64,000 nt of DNA from an uncultured Myxococcales bacterium. Its GTDB lineage: Bacteria; Myxococcota; UBA4151. The translations under genes were made by a program, and so were the position numbers. The notes beneath the pieces were generated by a model. That model was not told the origin of the DNA, ran no database searches, and saw only the letters and a list, made by a program, of their open reading frames with translations. Shown here piece by piece: positions 25,446 through 44,489 of the stretch; positions within the stretch are counted from its first letter, which is position 1; each line of letters starts with the position of its first letter. The stretch lies in assembly GCA_964013405.1 (NCBI GenBank), contig CAXGWI010000002.1:1-64000 (forward strand), in the 5' to 3' direction.

Positions 25446-25601
25446 ATGAGTGAGATTGAACTTCAGGTGAATGGAGATGTTGTTTGCCTCAAGGACCAGA
25501 CCGATTCGACGCTCTTGGGAGCGCGTCGAGACCGCCTTGGCCGCAACCAGAACTACTTGCCCAGAAGCTGGGCGAAGAGGGTCACGCCTGATTTCGTATG
25601 A
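25446..25601 (+). pseudogene. 51-codon remnant resembling the N-terminus of a CoxS/XdhA-type (2Fe-2S) subunit
   Basis: Hand translation MSEIELQVNG...STLLGARRDRLG; GGAG RBS; ATGA overlap with the next gene; Fe-S Cys motifs absent. Confidence 0.55.
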
Positions 25602-26905
25602 GCCTGCGACTGCTTCTCGTTGGTGATATGCACCTGGGCAAACAGCCTCGGTTGACGCCCAGCCTCCGGGCGCTCGGCGTGGAGGGCGCAACCATCTCAC
25701 CGGCGGCGGCCTGGCGCCGGGCGGCGGAACTCGCTGAGGAGCATGCTGTTCACGGCGTGCTCTGTGCCGGCGACCTAGTGAACCAGAAAGAGAACTGTTT
25801 TGAGGCTTTGGCCGAACTCATCGGCCCCCTCAAAGCGCTCCACCGGGCCCAGATTCCCGTCTATGCGGTGGCTGGAAACCATGACGTGGAAGCCCTGCCG
25901 ATGTTGGCCCAATGGACTGATGGCGCCGGTTTTCACCTGCTTGGTGCCAATGGCCAATGGCAGGCGGTGGAACTCCATGGCGACGAAGGCGTCAAAGCTG
26001 AGCTTCTTGGCTGGAGCTTTCCCACCCAGGCCTATTACGAATCGCCACTGCCAGGACTCCCAGATCGGTCCGATTTAAAGGTGCCGCGCATCGGTTTGCT
26101 CCATTGCGATCGGGATGGGCACTCCAGTCATGCACCCGTCCCCTCTCGGGAACTGCTGGATGCCCCCGTCGACGCCTGGTTTTTGGGGCACATCCATATC
26201 CCTGATCGGGAGGGTTTAAGTCAGCCTCAACCCCTGGGCTATCTCGGTTGCCTCAGCCCCATCCGCAGTAAGGAGTTCGGTTGGCATGGGCCCTGGCTTG
26301 CCACCTTGGATCAGGCCGGCACGTTCACTTTGGAGCCCCTCTCGTGCAGCCCCCTTCGTCTCGAGCATGTCGACTGTGATTTGTCCGGCTTGTCCGGTAC
26401 CCCCCAGCGCCTAGAGTCACTGCTTCAGGCGCGCACCCGGGAAGCCCTTGAGGCGGCCGACGAAAAGCTCGAACTCAAGGACGACCTCCGTGTGGTCCGG
26501 GTTCGGCTTCGCCTTGTGGGGGCAGTTGCTGACCCGCTCCAAATAGATCAAGTCATCGAGGCCGCAGACTACCATAACTTGAGCGTACCCATCGGTGGAC
26601 GCAACTGGGTCGTCGACCGGCTGACCAATGAATGCCGGCGTCAAGTGGACCTGGAAGAGCTCAGTCGAGGGCATGACCCACCGGCCCACTTAGCCCAACA
26701 ACAACTGCGGCTGGAAGCCGGCGACGATGAAGACCTCATCGACGCTTTTCGAGCCTTTCTACGCCAGAGCGAGCTCGGCACTGGGCGCTGGTCTCGGTGG
26801 CCTGAGCCCAGCGACGAAGCGATTCGCGCCTTGTTGCTACGACGGGGGGCTCGGCATTTGGCCCAACTCCTGGGCCAAAAGGAGGAGGTGCCCTTTGAAG
26901 CTTGA
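25598..26905 (+). CDS. SbcD/Mre11-like DNA repair metallophosphoesterase (YhaO-like)
   Basis: GDMHLG, AGDL, GNHD, LLH and LGHIH motifs. Confidence 0.9.
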   Translation: MSLRLLLVGDMHLGKQPRLTPSLRALGVEGATISPAAAWRRAAELAEEHAVHGVLCAGDLVNQKENCFEALAELIGPLKALHRAQIPVYAVAGNHDVEALPMLAQWTDGAGFHLLGANGQWQAVELHGDEGVKAELLGWSFPTQAYYESPLPGLPDRSDLKVPRIGLLHCDRDGHSSHAPVPSRELLDAPVDAWFLGHIHIPDREGLSQPQPLGYLGCLSPIRSKEFGWHGPWLATLDQAGTFTLEPLSCSPLRLEHVDCDLSGLSGTPQRLESLLQARTREALEAADEKLELKDDLRVVRVRLRLVGAVADPLQIDQVIEAADYHNLSVPIGGRNWVVDRLTNECRRQVDLEELSRGHDPPAHLAQQQLRLEAGDDEDLIDAFRAFLRQSELGTGRWSRWPEPSDEAIRALLLRRGARHLAQLLGQKEEVPFEA

Positions 26906-29900
26906 GCGCTTGCACCTCTGCCGAAGCGTCGGGCTTCCCGAAGGTTTAGATGCGATCGTTCCCGGTCCTGGCCTCAACCTGATCTTAGGGGCCAATGGTT
27001 CGGGAAAGTCGAGTCTGACCGCCGGCGTGCTTCAGGCCCTCTTCCACGAGATTCGGGATGACCAACTGGTGATGAACATCAGTCTCGCCGGCGGTGTGGA
27101 CCTGAGCCATGCCCACGGCAAGAGTCATTGGAATGGTCCGGTGCCCGCCTTGCCACCGACCCATTTCGCCAGCAGCTACCGCCTTGGGCTTTTGGATTTG
27201 GGGGAGGAAGGGGACTCAGAGGCCGATTTGGTCCGGCGGCTCAAGCGAGAGTTAGCTGGAGGCTACGATCTCCAATGTCTGTCTGAAGGACGCCGGGTGA
27301 AGCAGAGCCATGGTCGAAAGGCCTGGCTTGAGCGGCAGCGGGCGGAAAAGGAGCGGCAGCGGGCGCTGAATGGCTATGACGAGTTACAGCGGCGACAAAA
27401 AGGACTGGTCGGACTGCGGGAGGAGTTGCGTCTCGCCGAGCAGGGACAAGGGCGATTGCAGGACCTTGGTCGGGCCAAGCAGCATTGTCAGCGCCGCGGG
27501 ACCATCACCAAGGATGAGGGGATTCTCGCGGCAGCTCCCAGCGATTGGCGGGAGATACCACTGGATGCTGTCGAACAGGTACAGAGTGCCGACGAGCAGT
27601 TGCTGGCCTTCGATGCGCGCCGCCGTGAATTATTGATCGAACTGGAAAGCAATGGGCGGGAGACCGAGGCCCTTGGTTTGACGGCACCCCTGAGCGAGGA
27701 CGAATTGGTCGCCTGGCGTCGGCGAGCGAAGAAACTCGAAGGATGGGAGCGGGAACAGAGTGACCGCCATCGTCGCCGGGCCACCCTGCAACCGGCCATT
27801 GTGATTGAAGACCAGGGGCAATTACTGCCCAATATCGATGCCCTCGAAGCGAAAATCCTCCAGCGATCAGCCCTGATGCAGGACCTCCAAACCCTTGAAC
27901 GCCAAGGAGGGAGCGAAGCCCCTGCTACGGCGAAGCTGCCCGAGTCGATTCATATCGGCCGGGAGTTGCTTGCCCAGTGGTTGCAGGTGGTTCGACCCCG
28001 GCAGCTGCCCGGTTGGTTGCTCTTCGTGTTGGCCTTGTTGCTGCTGATGGGCATGGTGGTGGGCCTTCAAGGGCAGTGGTTGGGCTACGGCGTTGCAGGC
28101 ATCGCATGTCTTCTCCTCGTTTGGACCCAGCAGGAACCCAAGGACAGCCGGGACCAACTCCAGCGTCGCTATGAGGACACGGGCTTGCCCCGGCCTGAAT
28201 CCTGGGATCCCGGCGCGGTCGGCGAAGCCATGGAGCGTCTCAACGATCAGGTCGCGGCCGACGATCAAGCCCGGGCTGAGGCTCAAATACGTTCTCAAAA
28301 CGAGAAGGCTCGCCAGCAGGCTCTGCAGGGCCTGGAGGAGTTGAATGGGGAATTGGCTGAGATCGCCCGCAGTCTCGGACTTCCTGAGGACGTATCGAGC
28401 ATGGGCTTGAGGGAAGCGGTGGAAGCTCTGAAAGATCGCCGAGACCTTGAGGAGTTGGAAGCCCTCATCGCGGTGGCTGATGATGAAGCGGACCAGCTGC
28501 GCAGCCAAGCCTTGGATGCACTGCAGTCCTACGGTTTGAGCGCACCTGTGGATGGCCACGGACTTGAGGCTTTTGTCGAGAACCTGGGCAACCGCTGCCG
28601 GGAGTGTCGTCACCTTCACAAGGAGAGGTCACAGTTAGAGGATCGAGTGGCAGCCCACGATCGAGAACGGATCGAAATCGTCGCTCGCCGTGATGCGCTC
28701 CTTGGTGGCGGAGACTTGGTCGAGTTGGCGGCCCGGGTTCAGGTTTCCAAGGACGCTCACGAGGCGGAGATCCGCTTGGTTCGTGACCGGCAAGAACTCG
28801 CCCAGTTGGCCACACAGATCGAAGACCCCGAACTGTTAGCCTGCGATCAGGAACTCTTGGCGGTCTTCACCCGTGAGAGCGAAGGGGCCCTAGAGAATAT
28901 GAAGGTCCTCATGGACCAGATCAGCAAGACGGAGCAGGCCATTCTACAGGCTCGGGAGCAGGCCCCGCTGCGCCAGGCGGACCAGGCCTTCGATGCGGCT
29001 CAGGAAGCCCTGGAGTCCGAGTATGACCTGGGCCTGGACTGTCTTGCCGATACCTTTCTCGCTCAGCAACTCCAGGCCGATTATGAATCCAAGTCATCGC
29101 CCCAACTCTTTGGTCGTGTGCGGCGCCGACTTGAGGCCTTTACCTTGGGACGATACGAGTTGGAGATACAAGGGAGCGAACTCAGAGCCATCGACCATAG
29201 CGGCTTGGGCAGCCAGGCCTTGAGCGAGCTCTCCCATGGCACTCGAGTCCAACTCTTGTTGGCGGCTCGCTTAGCCTTCATCGAAGAGCATGAGGACGGT
29301 GTCCTCCTGCCCCTCTTTCTCGACGAGGCACTCTCGATTTCAGATCCGGAGCGCTTTGAGGCGGTGGCGAAGGTTCTGATGGACCTCGTCGCCGAGGGCC
29401 GCCAGGTCTTTTACTTGAGTTGTGATGGTGCGGATGCCCATCGATGGCAGCGCACGGCAGAGAGTCTAGGCCAACCGGCCCCTGAGGTGATCAGGCTGGG
29501 GAAGATGGCGTCCTTGGTGACCTACGAGGAAGTGCCGGAGTTACAGGCCCCGGGTCGCGATGAGTCTGCCGAGGCCTATGGCCGCCGAATTGGGGTGCGA
29601 GACCTTGATCTCTGGTCGCCAGCCGAGTCTTTGGATCTGTTCTACCTCCTCGAAGACCGATTGGATCTCGTGCACCGGCTTCGCCAAGCGCAGCAGCGAC
29701 AACTAGGGCCTTACAGCCTGCTCCGGACCCGGGCCCGGAATCCAGCCCAATTGACTGACGACGACCTGCGTCAATTGGACCTTCGAGTTGCGCTCTTTCA
29801 GGACTTTCTTCGCCTCCAGCGCGTCGGCCGCGGGTCCCCGGTTCGCCGGGAGATGTTTGAAGATGAGCGCCTCAAACCTTCATCAAGAGCGCTCCTCGCA

Positions 29901-30179
29901 GATCTTCTGGATGCGGTCGACGGAGATGCTCAAGCGCTCATGCTCAAGGTGGAACAACGGCAGGGTGATGCCTTTCGACGTAAGCAAAGAAACCTGGCAG
30001 AAGTGCTCGCTCAGATCCTCGAGGAGCACGGTGCGCTGGATACCCGTCCGGTGATGGATGCGACCGAGCGGTTGGGTCAGTTGGTCGACCAACACGGGCA
30101 GCGGGTCGACTTGGACGTGATCGCGTGGCTCGATGGACTCTGGAGCCATCGGATCCGCGGGATCGAAGGGGAAGCATGA
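26895..30179 (+). CDS. SbcC/Rad50-like coiled-coil ATPase (YhaN-like) with an internal TM hairpin
   Basis: TTG start after GGAGGAGG; Walker A GANGSGKS; signature LSHGT; Walker B LFLDEAL; two hydrophobic helices mid-protein. Confidence 0.88.
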   Translation: MKLERLHLCRSVGLPEGLDAIVPGPGLNLILGANGSGKSSLTAGVLQALFHEIRDDQLVMNISLAGGVDLSHAHGKSHWNGPVPALPPTHFASSYRLGLLDLGEEGDSEADLVRRLKRELAGGYDLQCLSEGRRVKQSHGRKAWLERQRAEKERQRALNGYDELQRRQKGLVGLREELRLAEQGQGRLQDLGRAKQHCQRRGTITKDEGILAAAPSDWREIPLDAVEQVQSADEQLLAFDARRRELLIELESNGRETEALGLTAPLSEDELVAWRRRAKKLEGWEREQSDRHRRRATLQPAIVIEDQGQLLPNIDALEAKILQRSALMQDLQTLERQGGSEAPATAKLPESIHIGRELLAQWLQVVRPRQLPGWLLFVLALLLLMGMVVGLQGQWLGYGVAGIACLLLVWTQQEPKDSRDQLQRRYEDTGLPRPESWDPGAVGEAMERLNDQVAADDQARAEAQIRSQNEKARQQALQGLEELNGELAEIARSLGLPEDVSSMGLREAVEALKDRRDLEELEALIAVADDEADQLRSQALDALQSYGLSAPVDGHGLEAFVENLGNRCRECRHLHKERSQLEDRVAAHDRERIEIVARRDALLGGGDLVELAARVQVSKDAHEAEIRLVRDRQELAQLATQIEDPELLACDQELLAVFTRESEGALENMKVLMDQISKTEQAILQAREQAPLRQADQAFDAAQEALESEYDLGLDCLADTFLAQQLQADYESKSSPQLFGRVRRRLEAFTLGRYELEIQGSELRAIDHSGLGSQALSELSHGTRVQLLLAARLAFIEEHEDGVLLPLFLDEALSISDPERFEAVAKVLMDLVAEGRQVFYLSCDGADAHRWQRTAESLGQPAPEVIRLGKMASLVTYEEVPELQAPGRDESAEAYGRRIGVRDLDLWSPAESLDLFYLLEDRLDLVHRLRQAQQRQLGPYSLLRTRARNPAQLTDDDLRQLDLRVALFQDFLRLQRVGRGSPVRREMFEDERLKPSSRALLADLLDAVDGDAQALMLKVEQRQGDAFRRKQRNLAEVLAQILEEHGALDTRPVMDATERLGQLVDQHGQRVDLDVIAWLDGLWSHRIRGIEGEA

Positions 30180-30333: not shown

Positions 30334-31119
30334 ATGGGACGCGCACTTGTTTTAGCCGCAATGCTGACGACGGGCTGCCACTCGGCCGTAGAGGCTCCTA
30401 CCGACTTCGATGCTCTGCTCATCTTTCTCTTTGACCATTTTGACGACGAAGAGCCCGATCACCTCATCGCGGGTGTGGAGAATCTGATGGCGTATGTTGA
30501 TGGTCATCGCCTTGAACTGAAACAAGGTTACGTGGTGGACAACCTGACCCCAGCGGTTGTGGAGCGAATCGAAGGGGAGGAGCACGATTTAACCGACCTC
30601 CTGGGCGTGGCGTTCACCCACGACTTTCAGCATCCGCTGACCACCATGATCGATGCTCAGGTTCGGGATGATCCGATGGTCTATTGGCCGGGGAAATACG
30701 ACAAGTACGACAAGACCCCTGTCACGGATCGGGATTGCTTTTTGACCAGTGATTGCCCGAGCTATGTTCAAGATACGGCGTCCATCAACAACCTCCCCCT
30801 CGGGCTGAAAGCCGATGTGGAATATCGAGCCGTCTATCGGTGGATTGAAACCTCGGTGGGGCCAACCATGGTGCAGAGGAACCACCTCTTAAGGTTGGCC
30901 GAGTTCAACTGGGATTGGATCGAGATGAAGTTCCAGTACTATCTGGGGGTGCAGGTTCAGTTGGAGCCAAACTGCACAAATCGGACAGAAGCCTCCTGGA
31001 TGTTGGCCAACATGGGAGATTCGCCCATCCCCGTCGATCTAGGCATTCAGATGGCTCTCGATTCCATGCGCGGAAGTGCGGAAGCTTGGGACGTCTATCT
31101 CGAGACACGGGAAGAGTAG
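30334..31119 (+). CDS. Hypothetical lipoprotein (first gene of the putative lipid-biosynthesis operon)
   Basis: Signal MGRALVLAAMLTTGC; 38-bp gap to the MMPL gene. Confidence 0.75.
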   Translation: MGRALVLAAMLTTGCHSAVEAPTDFDALLIFLFDHFDDEEPDHLIAGVENLMAYVDGHRLELKQGYVVDNLTPAVVERIEGEEHDLTDLLGVAFTHDFQHPLTTMIDAQVRDDPMVYWPGKYDKYDKTPVTDRDCFLTSDCPSYVQDTASINNLPLGLKADVEYRAVYRWIETSVGPTMVQRNHLLRLAEFNWDWIEMKFQYYLGVQVQLEPNCTNRTEASWMLANMGDSPIPVDLGIQMALDSMRGSAEAWDVYLETREE

Positions 31120-31157
31120 GAATACGTGTGCGTCGCCGCCGCTGATCATCGGGCACC

Positions 31158-33686
31158 GTGCGGATGAATAGAGCCCTTTCATGGTTGGCCCACCATGGTT
31201 GGAACCACCCTTGGCGAGTGCTTTCCATCTTGCTGCTGCCGACGCTGGTGCTTGGCTTCTTCGCGAGTCAACTTCGACTCGATGGTAGCCTGCTCGGTGC
31301 GGTCAACGACAATGACCCCCAGGTGGTTCGGCTCAAGCAGCTCAAAAAGCAATTCCCCGCCGGTGGCACCATGGCCTTGTTGGTGGAGGGGGGCACAGAA
31401 GCCCAGCGGCGGGCCGGTGTTCGACAGGCAGCGGAACAACTCGTCGAGCAGCCATCGGTACTTCAAGCAGCCTACCGCCTGGACGCGTTCATCGCCTATG
31501 GTCACGGCATTTTACTGATCAAAGACGAGACCTTCGAGCGATTGAAGCGCCGTTTGGAGGGATTGGCCTTCGTCCTCGAAGTCGCCCAGCATCCGGAGGC
31601 CCAGGAGACCCTCTCCACCCCCCAGGAGTCCAGTCCTGCGAAGGCGGAAGAGATGGTGGATCTGGCCGAAATGATTGCGGGTGATCTACCGTCGGGCTTG
31701 GTGGCCGAGGGGCTCTCGGACTTGCCCCTTCGAAGCGGCTGGTTCGCCAGTCCCGACGGACGCATCTACGTGCTGGACCTCCGGACCACTCTGGACCCCA
31801 TCGCCGATGATGTTGGGGGCGCAGCCTTCGTACCCATCGACCAAGCTTTAGCGTCTGTCCGGCAAGCTTACCCCGACTTGACCTTTACCTTCGCTGGCAT
31901 GGCTGCAACGGCCCACGAAGACCAGGCGAATGTCCTCAGTCAATTATTACCTCTGTCCTCGATTTCGCTGCTCTTGGTTCTCTTTCTATTGAGTCGATTG
32001 AACCGAAGTATTTGGTCGGTTGGGCTCACCGGGTGCGCCCTCGCAGTCGCCTTGGTTTGGACCTTCGGTTTGGTGCACCTCGTCATCGGCTATGCCTCGG
32101 TGATGGCTGCCGGCTTTGCGATTCTCCTCTTCGGTTTGGGGATCGACCACGCTGCCCATCTCCTGTTGCGCTTCGACCGGGAGCGCCGGGCAGGCTGCGA
32201 TGGCGCCGAGGCAACGAGGAGGATGCTCGTTCAGACGGGCCGAGGGGTCCTTGTGGGTGGACTGACCACCGCGTTGGCCTTCGGCTTGATGGCCTTCATC
32301 GATTTTAAAGCGGCGGTCCATCTCGGGATCACCGCCTGTATGGGGATGGTCGCGACGCTCATCACCGTGATGACGGTGTTGCCGGCCGGATTGCGTTTGA
32401 CCGTGGCTAAACGCCAGGTACCGCCGGAGGCTGCGCCGGTGGCGGTCCTCGAAAAGATCACCCAGGCCAGCCTCGCCTCGCCGAAGTGGGTGATGGGCCT
32501 GAGTGCTTTCATGCTGCTCCTGGGCCTTGCAGCCTTTCCCCGCTTCGAGTTGGAGACTGATCTCGAAGCGGTGATGACCCAAGATCTGCCCTCGATGATC
32601 GCATTGCGCCGTTTGAAAGACCAGGCGGGGATCACCACCGAAGCGGTGCTTTCTGCGGCACCGGACCTCGCAACGGCGCGGGCCCGAGCTGAGCGCCTTG
32701 AAGCGTTGCCTCAGGTGGCCCGAGTCGAGGGTGTTCACCGACTGCTGCCCCCGAACCTCAAGGAGCGGGTGGCTCGAAACCAGGCGATGCTGCCCATCGT
32801 AGAGGCCTTTGAAGACCTGCGCATCGAGGGGGTAACGTCGGCCCAGTTTCGTCAGGTGACGGCGGCCTTGGAGCAGCGGATTGAAGCCTGGCCCGAAACG
32901 GGCGAGTGGCGGGCAGTGAAGGCTCGGGCCCGGGGCGTCCTGGAGCGGATTCGTGCCCAGGACCCCAAAGCGCTTCAAGCCCACTTGGTCGCTGCCCAAA
33001 AGGCCCTCAAGCAGGGGCTGACCGATCCGGTGCTTCAACCGGAGGACCTACCGGAGCCCTGGCGGTCTCGTTATCTGGGCGACGGCGAGTACCTGAGCCT
33101 TATCTTTCCCAAGGACGAACGTCTTGCCGCCGATTCGCTCAGCGAGTTCCGGGCTGCTGTGACCGCGGTCGACCCCCAGGCCGCTGGAGGCCTCTTCGTT
33201 GTCGACTACTTGCTGGTGGGGGGCGTGGAGCGAATGAAGGGCAGCCTGGGGCTCATCTTGCTCGTCTTGTTCGTGGTCCTCTTCTTGGATTTGCGGCGCC
33301 CCAAACAGGTCGCGGTCGCCTTGGTTCCTCTGCTTTGTGGTTCCATTATCGGCCTCGGCGCCCTTCTTTGGCTGGGCCGGCCGATCACTTTGGTGATGTT
33401 GAGCGCATTCCCCCTCATCTTTGGCATTGGGATCGATGATGGCGTGCATCTGCTGCATGGGTGGAGAGAGGGGGGCGACATCAGCCGTTCGGTCAGTCAA
33501 ATTGGCGCTGGCATCCTCTTTACATCCCTGTCGACAGCCCTCTCTTTTGGCGTGTTGCTTGGCCTTGACCACAACGGCTTCGAAGGGCTCGCCCTTCTCG
33601 TGATCATCGGGGTTGGAACCTGCTTTGTCGCTTCGATGACGCTGTTGCCCGTGTTGGCGAGTCGTTTTCTGGAGCCGCCGACGTGA
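31158..33686 (+). CDS. MMPL/RND-family lipid transporter (HpnN-like)
   Basis: Two RND repeats with FGLGIDHAAH and FGIGIDDGVH; two large periplasmic loops. Confidence 0.9.
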   Translation: MRMNRALSWLAHHGWNHPWRVLSILLLPTLVLGFFASQLRLDGSLLGAVNDNDPQVVRLKQLKKQFPAGGTMALLVEGGTEAQRRAGVRQAAEQLVEQPSVLQAAYRLDAFIAYGHGILLIKDETFERLKRRLEGLAFVLEVAQHPEAQETLSTPQESSPAKAEEMVDLAEMIAGDLPSGLVAEGLSDLPLRSGWFASPDGRIYVLDLRTTLDPIADDVGGAAFVPIDQALASVRQAYPDLTFTFAGMAATAHEDQANVLSQLLPLSSISLLLVLFLLSRLNRSIWSVGLTGCALAVALVWTFGLVHLVIGYASVMAAGFAILLFGLGIDHAAHLLLRFDRERRAGCDGAEATRRMLVQTGRGVLVGGLTTALAFGLMAFIDFKAAVHLGITACMGMVATLITVMTVLPAGLRLTVAKRQVPPEAAPVAVLEKITQASLASPKWVMGLSAFMLLLGLAAFPRFELETDLEAVMTQDLPSMIALRRLKDQAGITTEAVLSAAPDLATARARAERLEALPQVARVEGVHRLLPPNLKERVARNQAMLPIVEAFEDLRIEGVTSAQFRQVTAALEQRIEAWPETGEWRAVKARARGVLERIRAQDPKALQAHLVAAQKALKQGLTDPVLQPEDLPEPWRSRYLGDGEYLSLIFPKDERLAADSLSEFRAAVTAVDPQAAGGLFVVDYLLVGGVERMKGSLGLILLVLFVVLFLDLRRPKQVAVALVPLLCGSIIGLGALLWLGRPITLVMLSAFPLIFGIGIDDGVHLLHGWREGGDISRSVSQIGAGILFTSLSTALSFGVLLGLDHNGFEGLALLVIIGVGTCFVASMTLLPVLASRFLEPPT

Positions 33687-33732
33687 AACTTGGACCTCGC
33701 TCACAGCCGGGCCCGCACGGGGGTGCCCTTTA

Positions 33733-34524
33733 ATGCTGTGGGTCTGCCTGTGGTTCCTGTGGTTTGCCCTGGTGGGTGGGGCGGTCTCGATTACCTATCA
33801 TCGGATGCTCGCCCACCGAGCGTTCCGGGCCCGCCCGTGGTTTCGCTATACACTGGTGGTCCTGGCCGCAACGGCAGGCCCGCCCATTCAATGGGCCAGC
33901 AATCACCGTCGACATCATCGGTATGTGGACCAGGAGGGTGATCCCCATTCACCGATCCAGGATGGTTTTTGGTGGGCCCACTGCGGGTGGTATTTGGGCC
34001 GGCGTGAGCCGTGGCTGTGCCTCCTCTTCGCCTTATCCGGGCCCTTCAGGCTGATCATCGATCCCTTTCTCTGGCCGTCCCTTGAGGCCATGGAACGGGT
34101 CCCACAGGATCTCGGCAAGGATCGGGGCCTGGTCTTCCTGTCCCAGCACTCGGTGCACCGCGGTATGATTTTGCTCCACCTTCTTCCTGTGGTCGGCTTT
34201 TGTTGGGCCTTGGGGTGGCCGGGGCTGTTGATTGCGTGGGCCAGCGCCGTCTTTTTCTACAATCTGGGCGATGGGGTGAACTCGTTCGGTCATCTCTATG
34301 GCGAGCGTGACCCCGCCAACGCCGGTGAGGCGCGAGACACCTGGTGGTTGGCCCTTTTGACTTTCGGCGAAGGTTGGCACGGTTTCCACCACGCCCATCC
34401 CCGGTCGCCCCGGATGGGACCCTTCGACTTCGGTTGGTGGGCGATTTGGGTCTTTGATCGAATCGGCTTAATTGAAGCACGACGCCCCGAGCAGGGGCAG
34501 CAGGGGGAGCGACAGCATGCCTGA
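33733..34524 (+). CDS. Membrane fatty acid desaturase (delta-9 acyl-CoA/acyl-lipid type)
   Basis: His boxes HRMLAH, HRRHH (followed by DPHSP) and GEGWHGFHH. Confidence 0.92.
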   Translation: MLWVCLWFLWFALVGGAVSITYHRMLAHRAFRARPWFRYTLVVLAATAGPPIQWASNHRRHHRYVDQEGDPHSPIQDGFWWAHCGWYLGRREPWLCLLFALSGPFRLIIDPFLWPSLEAMERVPQDLGKDRGLVFLSQHSVHRGMILLHLLPVVGFCWALGWPGLLIAWASAVFFYNLGDGVNSFGHLYGERDPANAGEARDTWWLALLTFGEGWHGFHHAHPRSPRMGPFDFGWWAIWVFDRIGLIEARRPEQGQQGERQHA

Positions 34525-35098
34525 ACCTACCGAAAGCCAATTGGTTCTCTACCTCATCCTCTATGTGATCCTGCCCATCTGGACCATCGCCGGCACGGTG
34601 GACTGGTGGTGTCACCGAAGGACGAAGATCGAGGAGACCAGTGGCCTGAAAGAGAGCATCATCCACAGCATCATGGGCATTCAGGTGGGGCTCCCCATCC
34701 TCGCCTGCCTCATCTTCGAGGTGAACGTCCTCTTGATGCTCTTTTGTTTCTTCATCCTCATCACCCACGAGTACGTGGCCCATCAGGATATTGTTTGGGC
34801 GACGCCGAGACGGGAAATCTCCCACCTCGAAATCCATGCCCACAGTTATCTCTCGACCGTTCCCTTCTACCTCATCGGTCTGATCGTGGTTCGGCGCTGG
34901 GATACCTTTTTGAAGATGATCACCTTCGACTGGTCCGGCGAGATGAGTCTTGTCCTTCGCAGCGAACCCATTGGAGGCACGCCCTACTATTTGCCCTATT
35001 ACTTAACCTTTGCTCTTTGCGTGGGCGTGGTTCCCTACGTTGAAGAGAACATTCGCTGCTGGAATTATCAGCGGCGCCAGCGAAAGGCTCAGGCATGA
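34517..35098 (+). CDS. His-rich integral membrane protein of unknown function
   Basis: About 5 TM helices; DWWCHRRTKIE, HEYVAHQD and EIHAHSYL motifs; overlaps both neighbours. Confidence 0.78.
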   Translation: MPEPTESQLVLYLILYVILPIWTIAGTVDWWCHRRTKIEETSGLKESIIHSIMGIQVGLPILACLIFEVNVLLMLFCFFILITHEYVAHQDIVWATPRREISHLEIHAHSYLSTVPFYLIGLIVVRRWDTFLKMITFDWSGEMSLVLRSEPIGGTPYYLPYYLTFALCVGVVPYVEENIRCWNYQRRQRKAQA

Positions 35099-36231
35099 GC
35101 GTCTATATCACCCAGACGGGGTCATACCTCCCCGGTGATCCGGTGGACAATGAACGGATCGAGACGGTCCTGGGATTTGTCCATGACAAGCCGAGCAAGC
35201 TCAAACGGCGGATCCTCAAATCCAACGGCATTCAGACCCGTCATTATGCCATCGACGCGGCCCAGGAGACGCAGGTTCAAAATGAAGAGATGGCGGTGGC
35301 TGCCGGTCAATTGGCCTTGGAGCGATCTGGTCTCGAGCCCCAGGACATTGGTTTGCTGAGCGTGGCGACGAGTCAGGGGGACTATGTTTTACCGGGGTTC
35401 GGCAGTCAGGTGCAGGCCGGTCTCGAGATTCCCCGGGTGGAGCTGGTCACCACCCATGGCATTTGCTCCTGTGCGATGATGGCTCTGAAGGCTGCGGTGA
35501 ACGGGGTGAAAGTTGGTGACCAACAACAGGCGCTGGTCGTCTCCTCTGAATTGTCGAGTCGCTTACTCAAAAAGCAGCGCTACGAGGCGGCGATCGGCTC
35601 GATCGGCGCACAGAGAGGCTTGGATTTTAATGCAGAATTCCTGCGTTGGATGCTTTCGGATGGGGCCGGGGCCATCGTTCTTTCCGATCGGCCCCGGGCC
35701 AATCAACTGAGTTTTCGAGTCGACTGGATTCGATCCTTCTCCCATGCGGACAGTTTTCCCGTTTGTATGAGCGTTGGTCACTCCGGCAAGGGGGAAGATG
35801 CCCCGAAGTCCTGGCAGGATTACAGCACCTATGGCGAGGCCGAGGCCGATGGTGCCCTGCTGATTCGCCAGGATGTCCGTCTGCTGGAAAATATCGTCAA
35901 GCTGGGGGTTGATGGCTTTCTGGGCCTCATCGAAGAAGGCACGGTGGCCGTCGACGAGATCGATCACTTCCTCTGCCATTACAGTTCCCATTATTTCCGT
36001 GGAAAAATCGTTGAGATGCTGACCAAAGCCGGGGCGATGGTGCCCGAAGAGCGCTGGTTCACGAATCTCTATGACAAGGGCAATACGGGCTGTGCGGCCA
36101 TGTTCATTATGATCGATGAGTTTTTCCAGTCAGGTCGGGCGAAGCCTGGCGAGACCATCTTTTGCCATGTGCCCGAATCCGGGCGCTTTAATACGGTCTA
36201 CATGCAACTGACCTGTGTGGAGGGCACATGA
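35095..36231 (+). CDS. StlD/DarB-family beta-ketoacyl synthase III-like enzyme
   Basis: Cys in HGICSC, His in HYSS, Asn in GNTG; AEFLRWMLSDGAGA and VPESGRF motifs typical of DarB/StlD. Confidence 0.9.
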   Translation: MSVYITQTGSYLPGDPVDNERIETVLGFVHDKPSKLKRRILKSNGIQTRHYAIDAAQETQVQNEEMAVAAGQLALERSGLEPQDIGLLSVATSQGDYVLPGFGSQVQAGLEIPRVELVTTHGICSCAMMALKAAVNGVKVGDQQQALVVSSELSSRLLKKQRYEAAIGSIGAQRGLDFNAEFLRWMLSDGAGAIVLSDRPRANQLSFRVDWIRSFSHADSFPVCMSVGHSGKGEDAPKSWQDYSTYGEAEADGALLIRQDVRLLENIVKLGVDGFLGLIEEGTVAVDEIDHFLCHYSSHYFRGKIVEMLTKAGAMVPEERWFTNLYDKGNTGCAAMFIMIDEFFQSGRAKPGETIFCHVPESGRFNTVYMQLTCVEGT

Positions 36232-36932
36232 CCCAAGACGACCCGATCGGTGGGCAGGAGGCCCTTCAACCCCTGGCCCAAGAAGCCTTGAGAGGCTTGT
36301 TGCGCACTTGGATGGAGTTTGAACGCAAGCTCGCAAAGGTGCCGGTGCTACGGCGCTTAGATACGGGCACCTTTTCCCAGTCGGATTATCAGCGTCTCCT
36401 TTTCAACCTGCGGGCCCAGGTGGTGGAAGGGGCCCGCTGGATCACCCGAGCAGCCTCCAGTTTTGACCGGGACCATGCCGAGGTTCGTAGCATCGTGATC
36501 AGTCATGCCAAAGATGAGCATCGGGATTATGAGATCCTAGAGCAGGATTATGTCCGTGCCGGTGGCGAACTCGAGGCGATCCAGGCTGGCCAACGCAACA
36601 TCGGCAGCGAAGCCTTGGCGGCCTTTCTCATGCACCGAGCCAGCCAACCCAACCCGGTGGATATGCTCGGGGCGATGTTCATCATCGAGGGCTTGGGCGA
36701 AAAGATGGCAGCCAGCTGGGCGGAACGTATCTGTGAATTGACCGGCCTACCTGAAGAGGCGACCACCTTTCTCCGTTACCACGGCGAAAATGACGAGAAC
36801 CATATGGAGCGTTTCTACGTCATGCTGGACACGGTGGCGACCAGCCCGGAGCGGGTCGCAGCCATACAGAAAACAGCCAAGGTGGTGGCCCGCCTCTACG
36901 CATTACAACTGGAGGAGTTGGACAATGTCTGA
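36228..36932 (+). CDS. Heme-oxygenase-like diiron redox enzyme (HDO, TenA/PqqC superfamily)
   Basis: HAKDEHRD, FIIEGLG and YHGENDENH metal-ligand pattern; ATGA overlap with the ketosynthase. Confidence 0.85.
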   Translation: MTQDDPIGGQEALQPLAQEALRGLLRTWMEFERKLAKVPVLRRLDTGTFSQSDYQRLLFNLRAQVVEGARWITRAASSFDRDHAEVRSIVISHAKDEHRDYEILEQDYVRAGGELEAIQAGQRNIGSEALAAFLMHRASQPNPVDMLGAMFIIEGLGEKMAASWAERICELTGLPEEATTFLRYHGENDENHMERFYVMLDTVATSPERVAAIQKTAKVVARLYALQLEELDNV

Positions 36933-37770
36933 GCGGAGTGCAGCCACTCTTTATGAGGCTTTGCTCGCCGATGACAGCCATCCCATCGATCCGGTGGCCA
37001 AAAAATATTGGCTTCAGGACCTCCAGAACCCACTGCGCTTGAGTCTGCTGCCGCTGATGCGCATTGGCTGTACGCTGACGCTGCACACGGTCTACTTTTT
37101 GAAGCGATTGATCCCGATCCAGTTCCGGGCCCATCGGTTCCTGCAGTGGTTGATCTGCTTCTTCATGAAATACTTCGTTCGACCGGAGGCAAACATCCTC
37201 ATCATTCGTCACTTTGCTGTCGAGTCGAACATCCTTAACCTGCTGATCCGCAACTCGAAGGGCGGCGAGAACGTCCCCCTGGTGGACCTTTACCCCAGCA
37301 TGATCCGGGACTTGATGGACGCCACATTTGTCGATCACGACCAAGGGGTTTTGATGACGTTTCGCGATCTGGGCAGTTGCCGAGATGAGGCCTGGCCGAT
37401 GGCCGAAGCGTCCCTGGACTGGAGCGGATGGCGTGACTTTGAGGTCCAGTACGATACGTTCCACAAAAAATGGACTCAGTTTCTCGATTTTGAAACGGCT
37501 CATGAACTCTTCAAGACGACCTTTTGCCTCCTCTTGACCGCCCGAGAATATGAGGCGGCGATCAACTCCTTCCAATTCGATGAGTCGATGGCGCTGCGGA
37601 TTGGCCGAATGATCGACGAGCCGAATCTGGTGGAGATGACCGCGAACAAGTTCCCGCTGGTCTTGGTGAGCACCCGCAACTTAAGTCGGCGGTTTGTGCT
37701 TCATGGCATCTTTACGGAGCACCTACATGCTCATCTACAGGAGATTAGAGTTCGCCATCACGGAAGGTAA
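36925..37770 (+). CDS. DUF6999-like hypothetical protein
   Basis: FVRPEANILIIRHFAVESNIL and EYEAAINSFQFDE; position after DarB-like and HDO genes matches my recollection of this family. ATG 36925 follows GGAGGAG. Confidence 0.7.
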   Translation: MSERSAATLYEALLADDSHPIDPVAKKYWLQDLQNPLRLSLLPLMRIGCTLTLHTVYFLKRLIPIQFRAHRFLQWLICFFMKYFVRPEANILIIRHFAVESNILNLLIRNSKGGENVPLVDLYPSMIRDLMDATFVDHDQGVLMTFRDLGSCRDEAWPMAEASLDWSGWRDFEVQYDTFHKKWTQFLDFETAHELFKTTFCLLLTAREYEAAINSFQFDESMALRIGRMIDEPNLVEMTANKFPLVLVSTRNLSRRFVLHGIFTEHLHAHLQEIRVRHHGR

Positions 37771-37803
37771 TGCCGGTGGGGACCGACCCGTAACCGACTG
37801 CTA

Positions 37804-37820
37804 TAAGACTTAAAGTCTTA
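37804..37820. promoter_or_regulatory. Perfect AT-rich palindrome, candidate operator
   Basis: TAAGACTT-A-AAGTCTTA (8-bp arms), intergenic. Confidence 0.55.
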
Positions 37821-37899
37821 GTTGAGGGAGGTCCTCCTCGGGGCCTTGCAGTGTGAGGGATTCCTTCAGTACAGTTGGATGTCCAACCGGAGTAAAACC

Positions 37900-40570: not shown

Positions 40571-40978
40571 ATGGATTTAAGTGAACTTGAAGACAACATG
40601 GGGTGGCTGGAGTGGGAAGACCGCTATCGCTACCTCATCGAATTGGGTGAAGCCTTGGAGCCCATCGACGAGGTGGCTCGCTGTGAGGCCAACCGCGTTC
40701 AGGGCTGCATGAGTCAGGTCTGGCTGCAATTGGAGCCATCAGAAGGTCGCCTTCATTTTCGTGGCGACAGCGATTCAGCCATCGTTAAAGGGCTCGTCGC
40801 TGTCTTGCGAATTGCCTATTCGGGGCAATCTCCCCAGCAGATCCTCGATTTTGATCTGAAAGGGGCCTTTAGCCGCATGGGGCTCGATGAACACCTGAGC
40901 CCTAATCGTCGCAATGGGTTCTATTCGATGGTGGGTCTGATCCGAGGTCGGGCCCAGGGCATGTTACAACGAGTCTGA
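40571..40978 (+). CDS. sufE: SufE family cysteine desulfuration protein
   Basis: WEDRYRYLIELG, NRVQGCMSQVW, DSDSAIVKGL and LSPNRRNG motifs. Confidence 0.95.
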   Translation: MDLSELEDNMGWLEWEDRYRYLIELGEALEPIDEVARCEANRVQGCMSQVWLQLEPSEGRLHFRGDSDSAIVKGLVAVLRIAYSGQSPQQILDFDLKGAFSRMGLDEHLSPNRRNGFYSMVGLIRGRAQGMLQRV

Positions 40979-42613
40979 GCTTGTTTCAGGCCGGGTGGTT
41001 GAGCGCCCCTTCTTAAAGGCATGGTCCCAAATCGGACGCAGGTCCAAATAGTCCTGCTCTTCTCGCTCGGGCACGGAAAGCCCTTCTCGGCTCAAGGTCC
41101 GTTGATAGGTCTCCCAGCCATTTTTAACTTCGATGAGCTCGAGTTCGGCCAGCAGTCCATGTTCTCGAGCCGAGCGATACCCATCGATTTCCTGCAACTG
41201 GCGCTCCAGGCAGAACTGGAAGTCCGCTAAGTCTCCCTCATCGCCCCGTCGCTCCAGAAAGATGCGATACCGGGCTTTGGGGCCGGAGACCGGCGTGACC
41301 AAAAAGAACCGGGGTTTTAGGTTCGTCTCCCAGTGGGCCACCTCGACGGCGCGACGGATTGCTGCTTCACCGACTTTCTCGCCAGCCAGATTGGCGGCCA
41401 TATCCAGCCGGCCGAGAAACTCAATGCAAGGGGTTGCGCCGTGAAAGCCGACGCAGCGCACCGCATCTCGGAGGTGGTAGCGGGTGAGACCACCGGCGGT
41501 GGTCACGATGGGCGAATAGGTGCCACCGAGTCGTAGTTCATCCACTAAGCAGGGCCGGGCGTCCGGGGCTTCAAGGTCTTGGAACTCTAGGAAATGACTC
41601 GTCACGGCCAGGACACTGCCGGTGCCGCTCCACAGTGGAAAGCTGACAATACCCTCGGTCGCAATCAGTCCTTTTGCTTGAATTCGAGTGTTGGGAAACC
41701 AGGCCTTCAGGTTCGGTAGCAAGGCAGCCGATGGCCCCTCGCCATAACAGGACAGCAGTTGGAGTCGTGGCCATAGGGCGCTTCCCACGAGATCCCCGGC
41801 CTCATCGAGCCCAGCCATGATCGCTGCCCGGCGGCTGGGCTTGAGGGTGTCGAGAAGGGGTTCGAGATTCTGCGCCAGTTCTTCCATCAGCGCGACCAAA
41901 AAGGTGGGATGCCAGATGGAGATAAAGCCCAAGTCCTCGCAGGCCAGAAGTTCCTGGATGGTCTGTTGGCGCCAGGCGCTTGGGTCGGCGATCCGACGAA
42001 CTCGGCTGCGGACAGCGCGGGTGCGACGCAGGGCAAAACGGGCCAAGGGGCTAAAGAAGTCGGTATCGTCGTCCATACCGATAGGGATGCCGCCCGGTGT
42101 GCTCTCTCGCTGATGGGGCAGGGGCGCCATGCCCCAGTAACTACGGGTTCCCACCAGATCGGGACAACCGATGGACAACTCTCGAAGCCAGGGAGCGGTC
42201 GCCGCGGCAAACTCGCTAAAGAGACCGTCGGTATAAGGGATCAGTTTGATCTCTCCAGCGGCACCTCGGCTCCGCTCCATGAGTCGAACCGGCGCCCGGG
42301 TCAGGACACGTCGCTCCCCATTGGCGATTCGGTTGATCCATTCAGAAAAATCGTCATAGCTGCGGACCGGAACCCGATCCTGAAAAGCGGCAAACGAATC
42401 GATGCCATCCAGTTGGTGAGTTTTGGCAAAGGCTGTGTCACGACGGCCGGCCAGCAGAGAGCGCAAACGAGCCTCTTGGGCTTTGCGCGGTTTGTTGGCA
42501 GCCCGTTGAAATTGCCGCCATCGGCCACGCAGGCTCATCACGTAAGCATGGTGAATACCTTTAACGACCGGTTGAAACACGGCTCGACTCCCACGATCGA
42601 TCGGGCCGAGCAT
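40964..42613 (-). CDS. GH3 auxin-responsive-promoter family protein (acyl-adenylate-forming)
   Basis: FQDRVPVRSYDD, KLIPYT, KGLIATEG, TTAGGLTRYHLRD and FLGR..GEKV motifs. Confidence 0.85.
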   Translation of the reverse strand: MLGPIDRGSRAVFQPVVKGIHHAYVMSLRGRWRQFQRAANKPRKAQEARLRSLLAGRRDTAFAKTHQLDGIDSFAAFQDRVPVRSYDDFSEWINRIANGERRVLTRAPVRLMERSRGAAGEIKLIPYTDGLFSEFAAATAPWLRELSIGCPDLVGTRSYWGMAPLPHQRESTPGGIPIGMDDDTDFFSPLARFALRRTRAVRSRVRRIADPSAWRQQTIQELLACEDLGFISIWHPTFLVALMEELAQNLEPLLDTLKPSRRAAIMAGLDEAGDLVGSALWPRLQLLSCYGEGPSAALLPNLKAWFPNTRIQAKGLIATEGIVSFPLWSGTGSVLAVTSHFLEFQDLEAPDARPCLVDELRLGGTYSPIVTTAGGLTRYHLRDAVRCVGFHGATPCIEFLGRLDMAANLAGEKVGEAAIRRAVEVAHWETNLKPRFFLVTPVSGPKARYRIFLERRGDEGDLADFQFCLERQLQEIDGYRSAREHGLLAELELIEVKNGWETYQRTLSREGLSVPEREEQDYLDLRPIWDHAFKKGRSTTRPETSSDSL

Positions 42614-42656: not shown

Positions 42657-44489
42657 TTATTGTGCGTCCTCGCAGATGATATGAAAGCGTTCGCTGCAAC
42701 GCTTATCGTGTAAGACGCGGCCCGAGTTTTCCCGCAGACGGAAGCAGCGGCGACCGTTTTCGTCAGCGTAATAAAGAATGTCATCGCCAGCCCAATTGTT
42801 GATCCAAGTGGGCGGTGGGTTTCTCCCGACCCCATTTTCATCGATGAGCCCGGTCCAAAAGTCCCAGCCCCAATCATCGTTCCTGCCGATCAGTTGCCGG
42901 ATCGCATCCAGATCAGCATTGCTCTCAAACGAGATGAGGTCGGCGCCGGCATGGATCTCATCGCAGCGTTCCCTGGCCCCATCCCAATTGAACCGCTCGG
43001 TACAGTAAAAAGAGAGCCGGTTTCGTCCCTCGATCTCGACGCAGCGATCCGGTAGATCAAGCCCTTCAGATCGACAGTCTCGGTCACAGCCGTCCCCGTC
43101 GACCCGATTGCCGTCATCACAGGCCTCGACCCCGGCCTGCACGTGGCCATCGCCACAGCGAGCCTCTTGGCAGTCGTTCAAACAGGCATCCGCCTGGTTC
43201 TGGTTGCCGTCGTCACATTGCTCAACGCCGACATATTGTTGTCCGTCGCCACAACGAGCGAGATTACAATTGTTCAAGCAGCCATCATGATCGGCTTGAT
43301 TGCCGTCGTCGCAGGCCTCCGCTTGAGGATTGCGGAAGCCATCTCCGCATCGATTGGCGACACAGTTGTTCAGGCAGGCGTCTTCTTGCGCTTGATTGCC
43401 ATCGTCACAGGCCTCTCGGCCTTGCCAGGTGTGCCCATCACCACAGCGGGCCAACATGCAGTTGCTCAGGCAGCTGTCTCGGTCGTTTCGGTTGCCATCG
43501 TCGCAGGCCTCCTGTCCCACTTGAACAAAGCCGTCGCCGCAAACAGCGATCTGGCATTCGGGGGTGCAGGCATCTGTCCCGTCGTCGTTACCGTCGTCGC
43601 AGGCTTCCACCTCACCGTTGACGATTCCGTCGCCGCAAACGTTGCGAGTGCAGTCGTTGAGACAAGCATCCTCCTGAGTCTCGTTGCCGTCGTCACAGGC
43701 TTCGACATTTCGCTGCACAAAGCCATCACCACATGTTGCCCGCCGACAGTCATTCAGGCAGTCATCGCCATTGTCTTGATTGCCGTCATCGCAGGGCTCG
43801 ATGCCTTCCTGGACCTGCCCATCCCCACAGCCAGCGGAGGTGCAGTTGTTGAGACAGAGGTCGGTCTCAATCTCGTTGCCGTCATCACAAAGTTCGACGC
43901 CTTCATGGACAATACCGTCGCCGCAGCGAGCCAGCAGACAGTTCGTTAAGCAGTCATCGTTCATGACCGTATTGCCGTCATCGCATTCCTCGTGATCGGG
44001 GCTGCCGACCTCCAGATCGATTCGAGTGACACCATCCCCACAGATTGCGCTGCGACAGTTGTTGAGGCAGTCATCGCCGTCGGTCTCGTTGCCGTCGTCA
44101 CATTCCTCCGCACCATCGATACCCGCTTCGAGGTCGACTCGGGCGACGCCGTCGCCGCATCGAGCGATCTTGCATGAGGTCGTACAGGCGTCATCGTTCT
44201 GCTCGTTGCCGTCGTCGCAGTCTTCGTCTGCCTTCTTTAAGCCATCGCCACAGCGGGGTGGCTGGCAGCGCGTCGTGCATTCATCCTCGTTGTCTTGGTT
44301 GCCGTCATCGCACAGCTCATCCAGTTGAATGATTCCATCACCACAACTCGCGTCGACACAGAGCCCCGAACGACACTGTTGGTTGGTGGCACAGGCCGGG
44401 CCATCATCGCACGGTTTGGCTCCATGGTAGGCGGCCGTGGGTGGGCAGCCAACGAGCAAGAGGAGCATCGGGGTTGCGAAACGCAGCAT
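42657..44489 (-). CDS. DUF4215-like Cys-repeat lipoprotein with a divergent C-type lectin-like C-terminal domain
   Basis: Lipobox LVGC; 13 repeats counted; FNWDGARERC..FWTGL..HDKRC..IICE. Confidence 0.85.
   Translation of the reverse strand: MLRFATPMLLLLVGCPPTAAYHGAKPCDDGPACATNQQCRSGLCVDASCGDGIIQLDELCDDGNQDNEDECTTRCQPPRCGDGLKKADEDCDDGNEQNDDACTTSCKIARCGDGVARVDLEAGIDGAEECDDGNETDGDDCLNNCRSAICGDGVTRIDLEVGSPDHEECDDGNTVMNDDCLTNCLLARCGDGIVHEGVELCDDGNEIETDLCLNNCTSAGCGDGQVQEGIEPCDDGNQDNGDDCLNDCRRATCGDGFVQRNVEACDDGNETQEDACLNDCTRNVCGDGIVNGEVEACDDGNDDGTDACTPECQIAVCGDGFVQVGQEACDDGNRNDRDSCLSNCMLARCGDGHTWQGREACDDGNQAQEDACLNNCVANRCGDGFRNPQAEACDDGNQADHDGCLNNCNLARCGDGQQYVGVEQCDDGNQNQADACLNDCQEARCGDGHVQAGVEACDDGNRVDGDGCDRDCRSEGLDLPDRCVEIEGRNRLSFYCTERFNWDGARERCDEIHAGADLISFESNADLDAIRQLIGRNDDWGWDFWTGLIDENGVGRNPPPTWINNWAGDDILYYADENGRRCFRLRENSGRVLHDKRCSERFHIICEDAQ

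Follow-up and report, generated by a model that had tools for sequence, protein, structure and literature searches.

The window analysed here is a 64,000-nucleotide stretch from an uncultured Myxococcales bacterium, and the system in question is a cluster of genes around a ketosynthase (KS) of the StlD/DarB clade, a heme-oxygenase-fold oxidase (HDO-like; HDO below), a DUF6999 protein and a small His-rich membrane protein (Table 1). The source genome is a 3.9-Mb assembly, 94% complete, in which each of these four genes is single-copy. The original prediction, made from the sequence alone, described seven co-oriented genes spanning 30334..37770, the last five overlapping, as an operon for an uncharacterised oxidised or unsaturated long-chain lipid. 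All seven open reading frames (ORFs) are confirmed on the + strand at the positions given there, and the overlaps are reproduced as 8, 4, 4 and 8 bases, in order; the gaps ahead of the overlapping genes are 38 and 46 bases. A consensus promoter scan found none on the + strand, and the terminator count did not exceed that of shuffled sequences. The proposed family labels likewise held, with MMPL (78.7 bits), FA_desaturase (67.8), Haem_oxygenas_2 (43.0) and DUF6999 (299.9) all above their Pfam cut-offs and the KS matching StlD/DarB best, and neither a DarA gene nor an acyl carrier protein (ACP) gene is found among the seven, as had been stated.

Table 1. Genes of the cluster and the block that contains its six-gene unit, in window coordinates
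Feature	Position	Strand	Description
Lipoprotein-like gene	30334-31119	+	261 aa; no Pfam/NCBIfam match; left flank, outside cassette
MMPL/RND-type transporter	31158-33686	+	842 aa; ~12 predicted membrane segments; Pfam MMPL 5e-22
Membrane fatty-acid desaturase	33733-34524	+	263 aa; Pfam FA_desaturase 1.7e-18; three His boxes
His-rich membrane protein	34517-35098	+	193 aa; predicted four-helix membrane bundle; core gene in the window's clade
StlD/DarB-clade ketosynthase (KS)	35095-36231	+	378 aa; C124, E152, H295, N330; core gene
Heme-oxygenase-fold oxidase (HDO-like)	36228-36932	+	234 aa; PF14518, 43 bits; core gene
DUF6999 protein	36925-37770	+	281 aa; Pfam PF22523 1.7e-89; core gene
Block with the six cassette genes	31107..37841		6.7 kb; ~157 bases in its place in same-genus genome G001

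The His-rich membrane protein, KS, HDO and DUF6999 genes form a conserved core. A scan of genome contigs with DUF6999 as query returned 33 loci at 57-64% identity, titled as archaeal in 31 cases (Ca. Poseidoniales and kin), as 'Verrucomicrobiales' in one and as 'uncultured bacterium' in one. The order His-KS-HDO-DUF6999 recurs in 32 of the 33, the remaining locus being interrupted by a contig end, and is therefore not a product of chance. Neighbouring genes bear out the archaeal context, with PolD DP2 immediately upstream of the cassette in one locus (L005) and prefoldin and L18Ae downstream of it in another (L020). DUF6999 is present in 31 of 251 genomes searched from the Poseidoniales' order, many of them incomplete, and a record of Pseudoalteromonas sp. 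THAF3 contains the same four core genes in the same order. An independent scan of metagenomes with an HDO alignment found 511 relatives; counts were taken from the best 80, which are ranked by likeness to the window, include many kin and so describe the window's clade only. In this set DUF6999 follows HDO in 76/76 loci with room for it, KS precedes HDO in 72/73, and the His-rich gene occurs in all 50 testable loci. Co-conservation, which the original prediction had proposed to check, is thus borne out by gene order in the genome loci and by near-constant linkage of the core partners in the metagenome loci. The prediction did not foresee the wide spread of the core, its extension to archaea or the frequent fusion of KS with HDO.

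The other two genes of the cassette vary. The desaturase is a frequent accessory: homologues at 37-46% identity adjoin the core in many loci, a second desaturase type was matched in 23/33 genome loci and the window's own type in 2/33, and desaturases occur in 11 + 20 of the 80 metagenome loci. The MMPL transporter is a rare accessory; L123 and L124 have homologues of 42-44% identity adjoining the core, and L123 carries all six genes (MMPL 44% identical). Its proposed role as the dedicated exporter of the system does not survive its presence in 2 of the 80 metagenome loci. In Poseidoniales the cassette occupies several chromosomal sites (L004-L035), beside polC and beside genes that we take, from their sequences, to encode a putative ribonucleotide reductase and a putative glutamine synthetase; the differing sites suggest movement of the cassette within the order.

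A survey of 401 genomes of the same phylum separates two partner sets. There, 29 genomes match DUF6999 (two as fragments or weakly) and 34 match the StlD/DarB model. DUF6999 is also present in 27 of the 28 genomes whose KS falls below the model cut-off, the remaining one being interrupted at a contig end, and in none of the six whose KS exceeds it; five of those six have a neighbour labelled DarA-like from an N-terminal motif and its position beside KS. The DarA-like and HDO/DUF6999 sets were not seen together among the 401 genomes. In 21 of 24 fetched same-phylum loci KS and HDO constitute one ORF, and the fused copies showed no match to the His-rich gene within the 20-kb stretches examined. 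A profile built from six DarA-like proteins recovered a held-out positive (L093) at 5e-120; with it, neither the window's genome (E up to 1) nor any of 139 cassette loci gave a match. None of the 80 HDO metagenome loci has a DarA-like gene. The layout in one genome, G314 (L080:6867-13124), comprises a divergent cytochrome P450 gene, KS and DUF6999, with an MMPL gene of unrelated type facing them in convergent orientation. On the Nostoc flagelliforme plasmid pNFSY08 (L087:5128-9584), a P450 gene is followed by KS and by partial HDO and DUF6999 matches that are absent from the record's gene table; this copy is possibly decayed. The control genome of Caulobacter vibrioides matches DUF6999 above its cut-off and the StlD/DarB model below its cut-off, which would make this bacterium a tractable test host if the two genes are linked.

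The window's KS scores 391.6 bits against the StlD/DarB model NF005293 (cut-off 450) and 100.7 bits against the FabH model, and the StlD/DarB models lead all other ketoacyl synthase III (KAS III) models by ~290 bits. Its best match in the PDB is StlD (E 2e-74). Residues C124, E152, H295 and N330 align with the catalytic Cys, Glu, His and Asn of StlD and are invariant in 22/22 homologues; H295 aligns with the His that is changed to Ala in the StlD variant 5gk2. A long motif around residues 178-193 is common to the DarA-linked and HDO-linked groups. In a tree of 24 of 43 rows, with the FabH outgroup and near-duplicates left out and no characterised DarB among the rows, the window's KS falls into a 100/100 clade of four-gene cassettes together with those of G004, G366, Pseudoalteromonas and Poseidoniales. 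A separate 100/100 clade unites five of the six DarA-linked KSs with a Prevotella KS; the sixth (L088), on a long branch, is placed among HDO-linked rows, and monophyly of the DarA-linked sequences is not rejected (p-AU, approximately unbiased test, 0.35). The unconstrained tree has the window, G004 and G366 as sister to Poseidoniales (support 97/95), but a single clade of all bacterial four-gene copies is not rejected either (p-AU 0.355), and we name no donor of the archaeal copy.

The HDO belongs to the heme-oxygenase-like fold family, with 43.0 bits against PF14518 (cut-off 28.9); its nearest solved relative is the uncharacterised 3dde (profile match E 1.5e-9). Residues E67, H93, E97, H98, D100, E154, H185, D189 and H192 are invariant in 22/22 homologues. 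According to the available part of PMC13185094, the ligands in MboA are E86, H89, E143, H172, D176 and H181. The E97-E154 spacing of 57 equals that of MboA E86-E143, and the window's protein shares the C-terminal H-x3-D-x2-H set of the HDO family (UndA, CADD, SznF, BesC, MboA). It departs from the canonical set of three His and three carboxylates in that five of the six positions are kept by alignment and the first His is Asp100. The spacing otherwise matches MboA; because of the Asp, the metal site is predicted to be non-canonical, and the invariant H98 might serve as a substitute ligand. The available descriptions of characterised HDOs do not report fusion to a ketosynthase.

DUF6999 and the His-rich protein are predicted from conserved residues to bind metal. 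DUF6999 is predicted to be all-helical (AlphaFold2 predicted local distance difference test score, pLDDT, 95.4); among 55 homologues of 19-75% identity, H96, D188 and D219 are kept in all, and H138, D139, H260 and E265 in 48-54. The model of the His-rich protein (pLDDT 95.9) is a four-helix membrane bundle with one acid-x3-His motif per helix (D29xxxH33, E46xxxH50, E85xxxH89, E105xxxH109), kept in 35-36 of 36 homologues that are 47-84% identical, so that their invariance weighs less. The automatic name 'diguanylate cyclase' was discarded for the latter, since none of the 36 members has a GGDEF or significant Pfam match at E up to 1, and comparisons likewise rejected a remote fatty-acid hydroxylase for this protein and a remote HDO for DUF6999. 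Structural comparison by Foldseek, suggested in the original prediction for both proteins, gave no match at E up to 0.001 with either AlphaFold2 model, and neither alignment found a match when the PDB was searched by profile. The best VIA-align rows have Z 9.2, root-mean-square deviation (rmsd) 3.0 and 119 aligned residues for the His-rich protein (TTYH3, generic four-helix bundles) and Z 3.7, rmsd 5.3 and 154 aligned residues for DUF6999; Atlas look-alikes are self-family clusters only. These model-based searches neither assign a fold to the two proteins nor make their folds new. A complex prediction of KS and HDO with DUF6999 as partner scored 0.00, which is no answer and weighs neither way on binding.

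What would such a set of proteins make? According to PMC6836626 (section 3.2.3), DarB makes a carboxy-cyclohexanedione, and DarA is an aromatase that acts on it with decarboxylation during aromatization; the available parts of PMC10088813 and PMC13748660 agree. Ring closure is the work of DarB (PMC6836626, PMC13748660), which leaves DUF6999 no cyclase to stand in for, contrary to what had been proposed. We tentatively favour, at somewhat below even confidence, a route in which the KS joins two fatty-acyl chains into a carboxy-cyclohexanedione, the HDO takes over DarA's part and aromatises the ring by oxidative decarboxylation, and DUF6999, the His-rich membrane protein and the desaturase tailor the product. 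By family resemblance, the KS would condense a beta-ketoacyl with an alpha,beta-unsaturated acyl thioester, CoA- or ACP-bound, from general metabolism. By chemical analogy, the HDO would then convert the carboxy-cyclohexanedione into a dialkylresorcinol-type ring: UndA carries out O2-dependent decarboxylation of dodecanoic acid to 1-undecene (PMC13108848, available part), and such decarboxylation to a C=C bond, applied to the carboxy-cyclohexanedione ring, would give the resorcinol tautomer. More speculatively, DUF6999 and the His-rich membrane protein could oxidise the ring further or pass the product to the membrane. The desaturase would unsaturate a chain and, in the window's copy, the MMPL protein would export the lipid. 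The HDO is judged the most likely stand-in for DarA because of the KS-HDO fusions, the separation of DarA-like genes from the HDO/DUF6999 set and the cited chemistry.

The absence of an ACP gene, to which the original prediction drew attention, is real but ordinary for DarB clusters: the bartoloside and microcarbonin clusters have none (PMC6836626, available part). DarB homologues are active on N-acetylcysteamine (SNAC) thioesters (PMC13748660, available part), and a dedicated ACP is therefore not needed. In five cassette-bearing archaeal genomes, 3HCDH genes are present with 4-6 matches each, and ACP matches occur solely inside one ORF of 2,367-3,051 aa. Such an ORF, with several ACP domains, was found in all five tested cassette-bearing genomes of the Poseidoniales order (G041, G042, G071, G077, G090). 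The G041 copy (contig C5; L201:6937-16080, - strand) reads KS-AT-ACP(n)-KR-DH and is thus an archaeal type I synthase of the PfaA-like kind; no stand-alone ACP match is listed for the five genomes. The idea that archaeal hosts force the use of CoA-bound substrates is weakened by these multi-ACP synthases. As for the larger claim of an uncharacterised oxidised-lipid operon, the DarA-less, ACP-less KS pathway with co-conserved oxidative partners stands, and the lipoprotein and the dedicated MMPL exporter fall away. The original prediction knew of no assigned product, and a literature search, with most subscription journals and supplements outside its coverage, turned up no publication that treats DUF6999 or the KS/HDO/DUF6999 gene set. 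PMC10849952 concerns a different cluster in its available part and was set aside.

Several observations weigh against this favoured route. The KS lies under both NCBIfam cut-offs (StlD/DarB 391.6 < 450; DarB 344.1 < 550), and forcing it into the DarA-linked clade is rejected (p-AU 3.7e-43); with its residues kept and that grouping rejected, the KS appears to resemble DarB but is not classed as a DarAB member. DarA-less DarB homologues may not make carboxy-cyclohexanediones at all (PMC6836626, available part). The HDO has E97-x-x-D100 where MboA has E86-x-x-H89, and Asp100 is present in 22/22 homologues. The 98%-complete genome G314 has KS, DUF6999 and a P450 and no match to the HDO alignment, so the HDO is not obligatory, whereas DUF6999 is present there; and the DUF6999 gene of G436 lies megabases away from KS-HDO. 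Finally, two of the four core genes are without assignable function.

Foremost among the alternatives, if somewhat unlikely, is a KS that does not cyclise and instead makes a head-to-head beta-keto acid, as in OleA and NocG, or a different product without a ring. Decarboxylation, desaturation or cleavage of that product by the HDO and its fellow oxidases would then yield a long-chain ketone, an olefin or an oxidised lipid. The position of the KS outside the DarA-linked clade and below the family cut-offs fits this, as do the different reactivity suggested for DarA-less homologues (PMC6836626), the beta-keto acid precedent of NocG (PMC10088813) and the action of UndA on linear fatty acids (PMC13108848), each in the available text. 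It is harder to reconcile with the retention of all StlD active-site residues and the 178-193 motif in both groups, and with the ~290-bit lead of the StlD/DarB models over other KAS III models.

It is also unlikely, though a serious contender, that DUF6999 is itself the stand-in for DarA, as an aromatase rather than the original prediction's cyclase, with HDO or P450 as a swappable tailoring oxidase. Of the 28 genomes, 27 have DUF6999 along with the KS, among them G314, which has no HDO match; DUF6999 has a conserved His/Asp/Glu set, and P450 genes lie beside the KS in G314 and on the Nostoc plasmid. Yet DUF6999 shows no profile similarity to the DarA-like protein (hhalign probability 0.1%, E 0.6), and the fusion partner of the KS is the HDO; in G436, DUF6999 is detached from KS-HDO.

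Metal-free O2 chemistry is known from PqqC, and chemistry of this kind, or the altered HDO site, might rearrange a ring that stays non-aromatic, giving a hydroxylated, ring-opened or ring-contracted cyclohexanedione that serves as a signal or membrane component. We consider this improbable: although the HDO ligands are non-canonical with extra invariant E67, H93 and H98, HDOs are known for multi-step rearrangements (PMC13108848, available part), and up to four oxidative enzymes exceed what aromatization requires, nothing points to it directly and the chemistry would be unprecedented. Ordinary dialkylresorcinol synthesis with darA elsewhere in the genome and unrelated neighbours, a case named in the original prediction as fatal to its own, is very improbable: a gene could be missing from the 94%-complete assembly, but that genome and the 139 loci have no DarA-like match, co-conservation is near-complete and KS is fused to HDO.

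Compared with DarAB(C), StlCD(E) and BrtCD, the cassette shares a StlD/DarB-family KS with the same catalytic residues and the possibility of acyl donors from primary metabolism (brt, too, is without an ACP). It differs in having no DarA/StlC aromatase, in a KS of a separate clade below the cut-offs, and in its partners: an often fused HDO, DUF6999 and the His-rich membrane protein. The putative microcarbonin cluster of Microcystis, with DarA, DarB, two desaturases, an oxygenase and a DevBCA exporter but no ACP (PMC6836626, available part), is similarly small and combines a DarB with desaturase, oxygenase and exporter; in contrast, it keeps DarA, its oxygenase and exporter are of other types and its product assignment is putative. 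The 'DarA-less' cyanobacterial DarB clades are aromatase-free and farther from characterised DarB; compared by description only, they have no HDO or DUF6999 partner named in the available text of PMC6836626 and PMC10088813. The Nostoc plasmid copy, with KS, HDO and partial DUF6999, is a cyanobacterial parallel to them. The window's MMPL protein has the MMPL/sterol-sensing domains and ~12 membrane segments of HpnN/MMPL transporters but scores far below the HpnN cut-offs (269.7 < 751.85 and 164.2 < 1100) and that of BstA; lipid export is its likely accessory role. The desaturase matches PF00487, with His boxes at 23-28, 58-62 and 216-220.

By these comparisons the cassette appears to be a real, widespread and uncharacterised variant of DarB-type biosynthesis. 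It bears on an open question, as DarA-less DarB homologues exist whose products are not settled (PMC6836626, PMC10088813, available parts), and it is directly testable because it is small, needs no dedicated carrier or ligase and is present in a cultured Pseudoalteromonas. An answer would link a chemistry to an HDO subfamily whose metal site is altered, and likewise to two protein families yet to be studied. The nearest copies adjoin archaea-specific genes (PolD DP2, L18Ae), and marine archaea would thereby gain a specialised lipid built from fatty-acyl chains. The most far-reaching version is doubtful: a new class of oxidised two-tailed ring lipids made by a self-contained four-gene route, in which an HDO with a new ligand set replaces the flavin aromatase, DUF6999 and the His-rich bundle are unstudied metalloenzyme families, and the cassette has crossed from bacteria into Poseidoniales. 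If true, Poseidoniales would produce a non-isoprenoid lipid from fatty acids that could serve as a biomarker. What the window itself adds is modest: a more complete cassette of six genes, exporter and desaturase included, from the lineage of bacteria that the KS tree places closest to the archaeal copies.

The limits of the unit are set by G001, a 93%-complete genome of the same genus. Its flank order equals the window's (metallophosphoesterase, ATPase, lipoprotein, 37900 ORF, kinase, regulator, SufE, GH3), with a lipoprotein orthologue at the equivalent position (83% identity), but the whole run of six genes, MMPL through DUF6999, is absent there, and whole-genome searches of G001 found no MMPL, DUF6999 or HDO match. 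In blastn against the G001 locus (L067) the window's alignment stops at 31106 and restarts at 37842. Because G001 keeps the lipoprotein and lacks the other six genes, the lipoprotein is chromosomal backbone and the unit comprises six genes, 31158-37770; its supposed membership of the operon is also at odds with its absence from the 80 HDO loci. The cassette is patchy, in 2/41 relatives; this spread and a rearranged copy in G004 favour movement, and the single G001 pair leaves gain versus loss undecided. In G004, of the same family (L038:1138-5346), the cassette is split into divergent halves, desaturase-DUF6999 and His-KS-HDO, followed by a gene of the acyl-CoA synthetase family. The lipoprotein belongs to an uncharacterised family that matches neither Pfam nor NCBIfam and has two paralogues in several genomes of the family (G000:C101 11984-12760; G002:C89; G003:C19); no cassette gene is near the C101 paralogue of the window's genome. 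Upstream, the pair at 25598-30179 (+) encodes the metallophosphoesterase and an AAA/SMC-like ATPase and is syntenic in G001. Downstream, a GH3-family acyl-adenylate enzyme (40967-42613, -) and a DUF4215 Cys-rich repeat protein (42657-44489, -) are both backbone genes common to G001.

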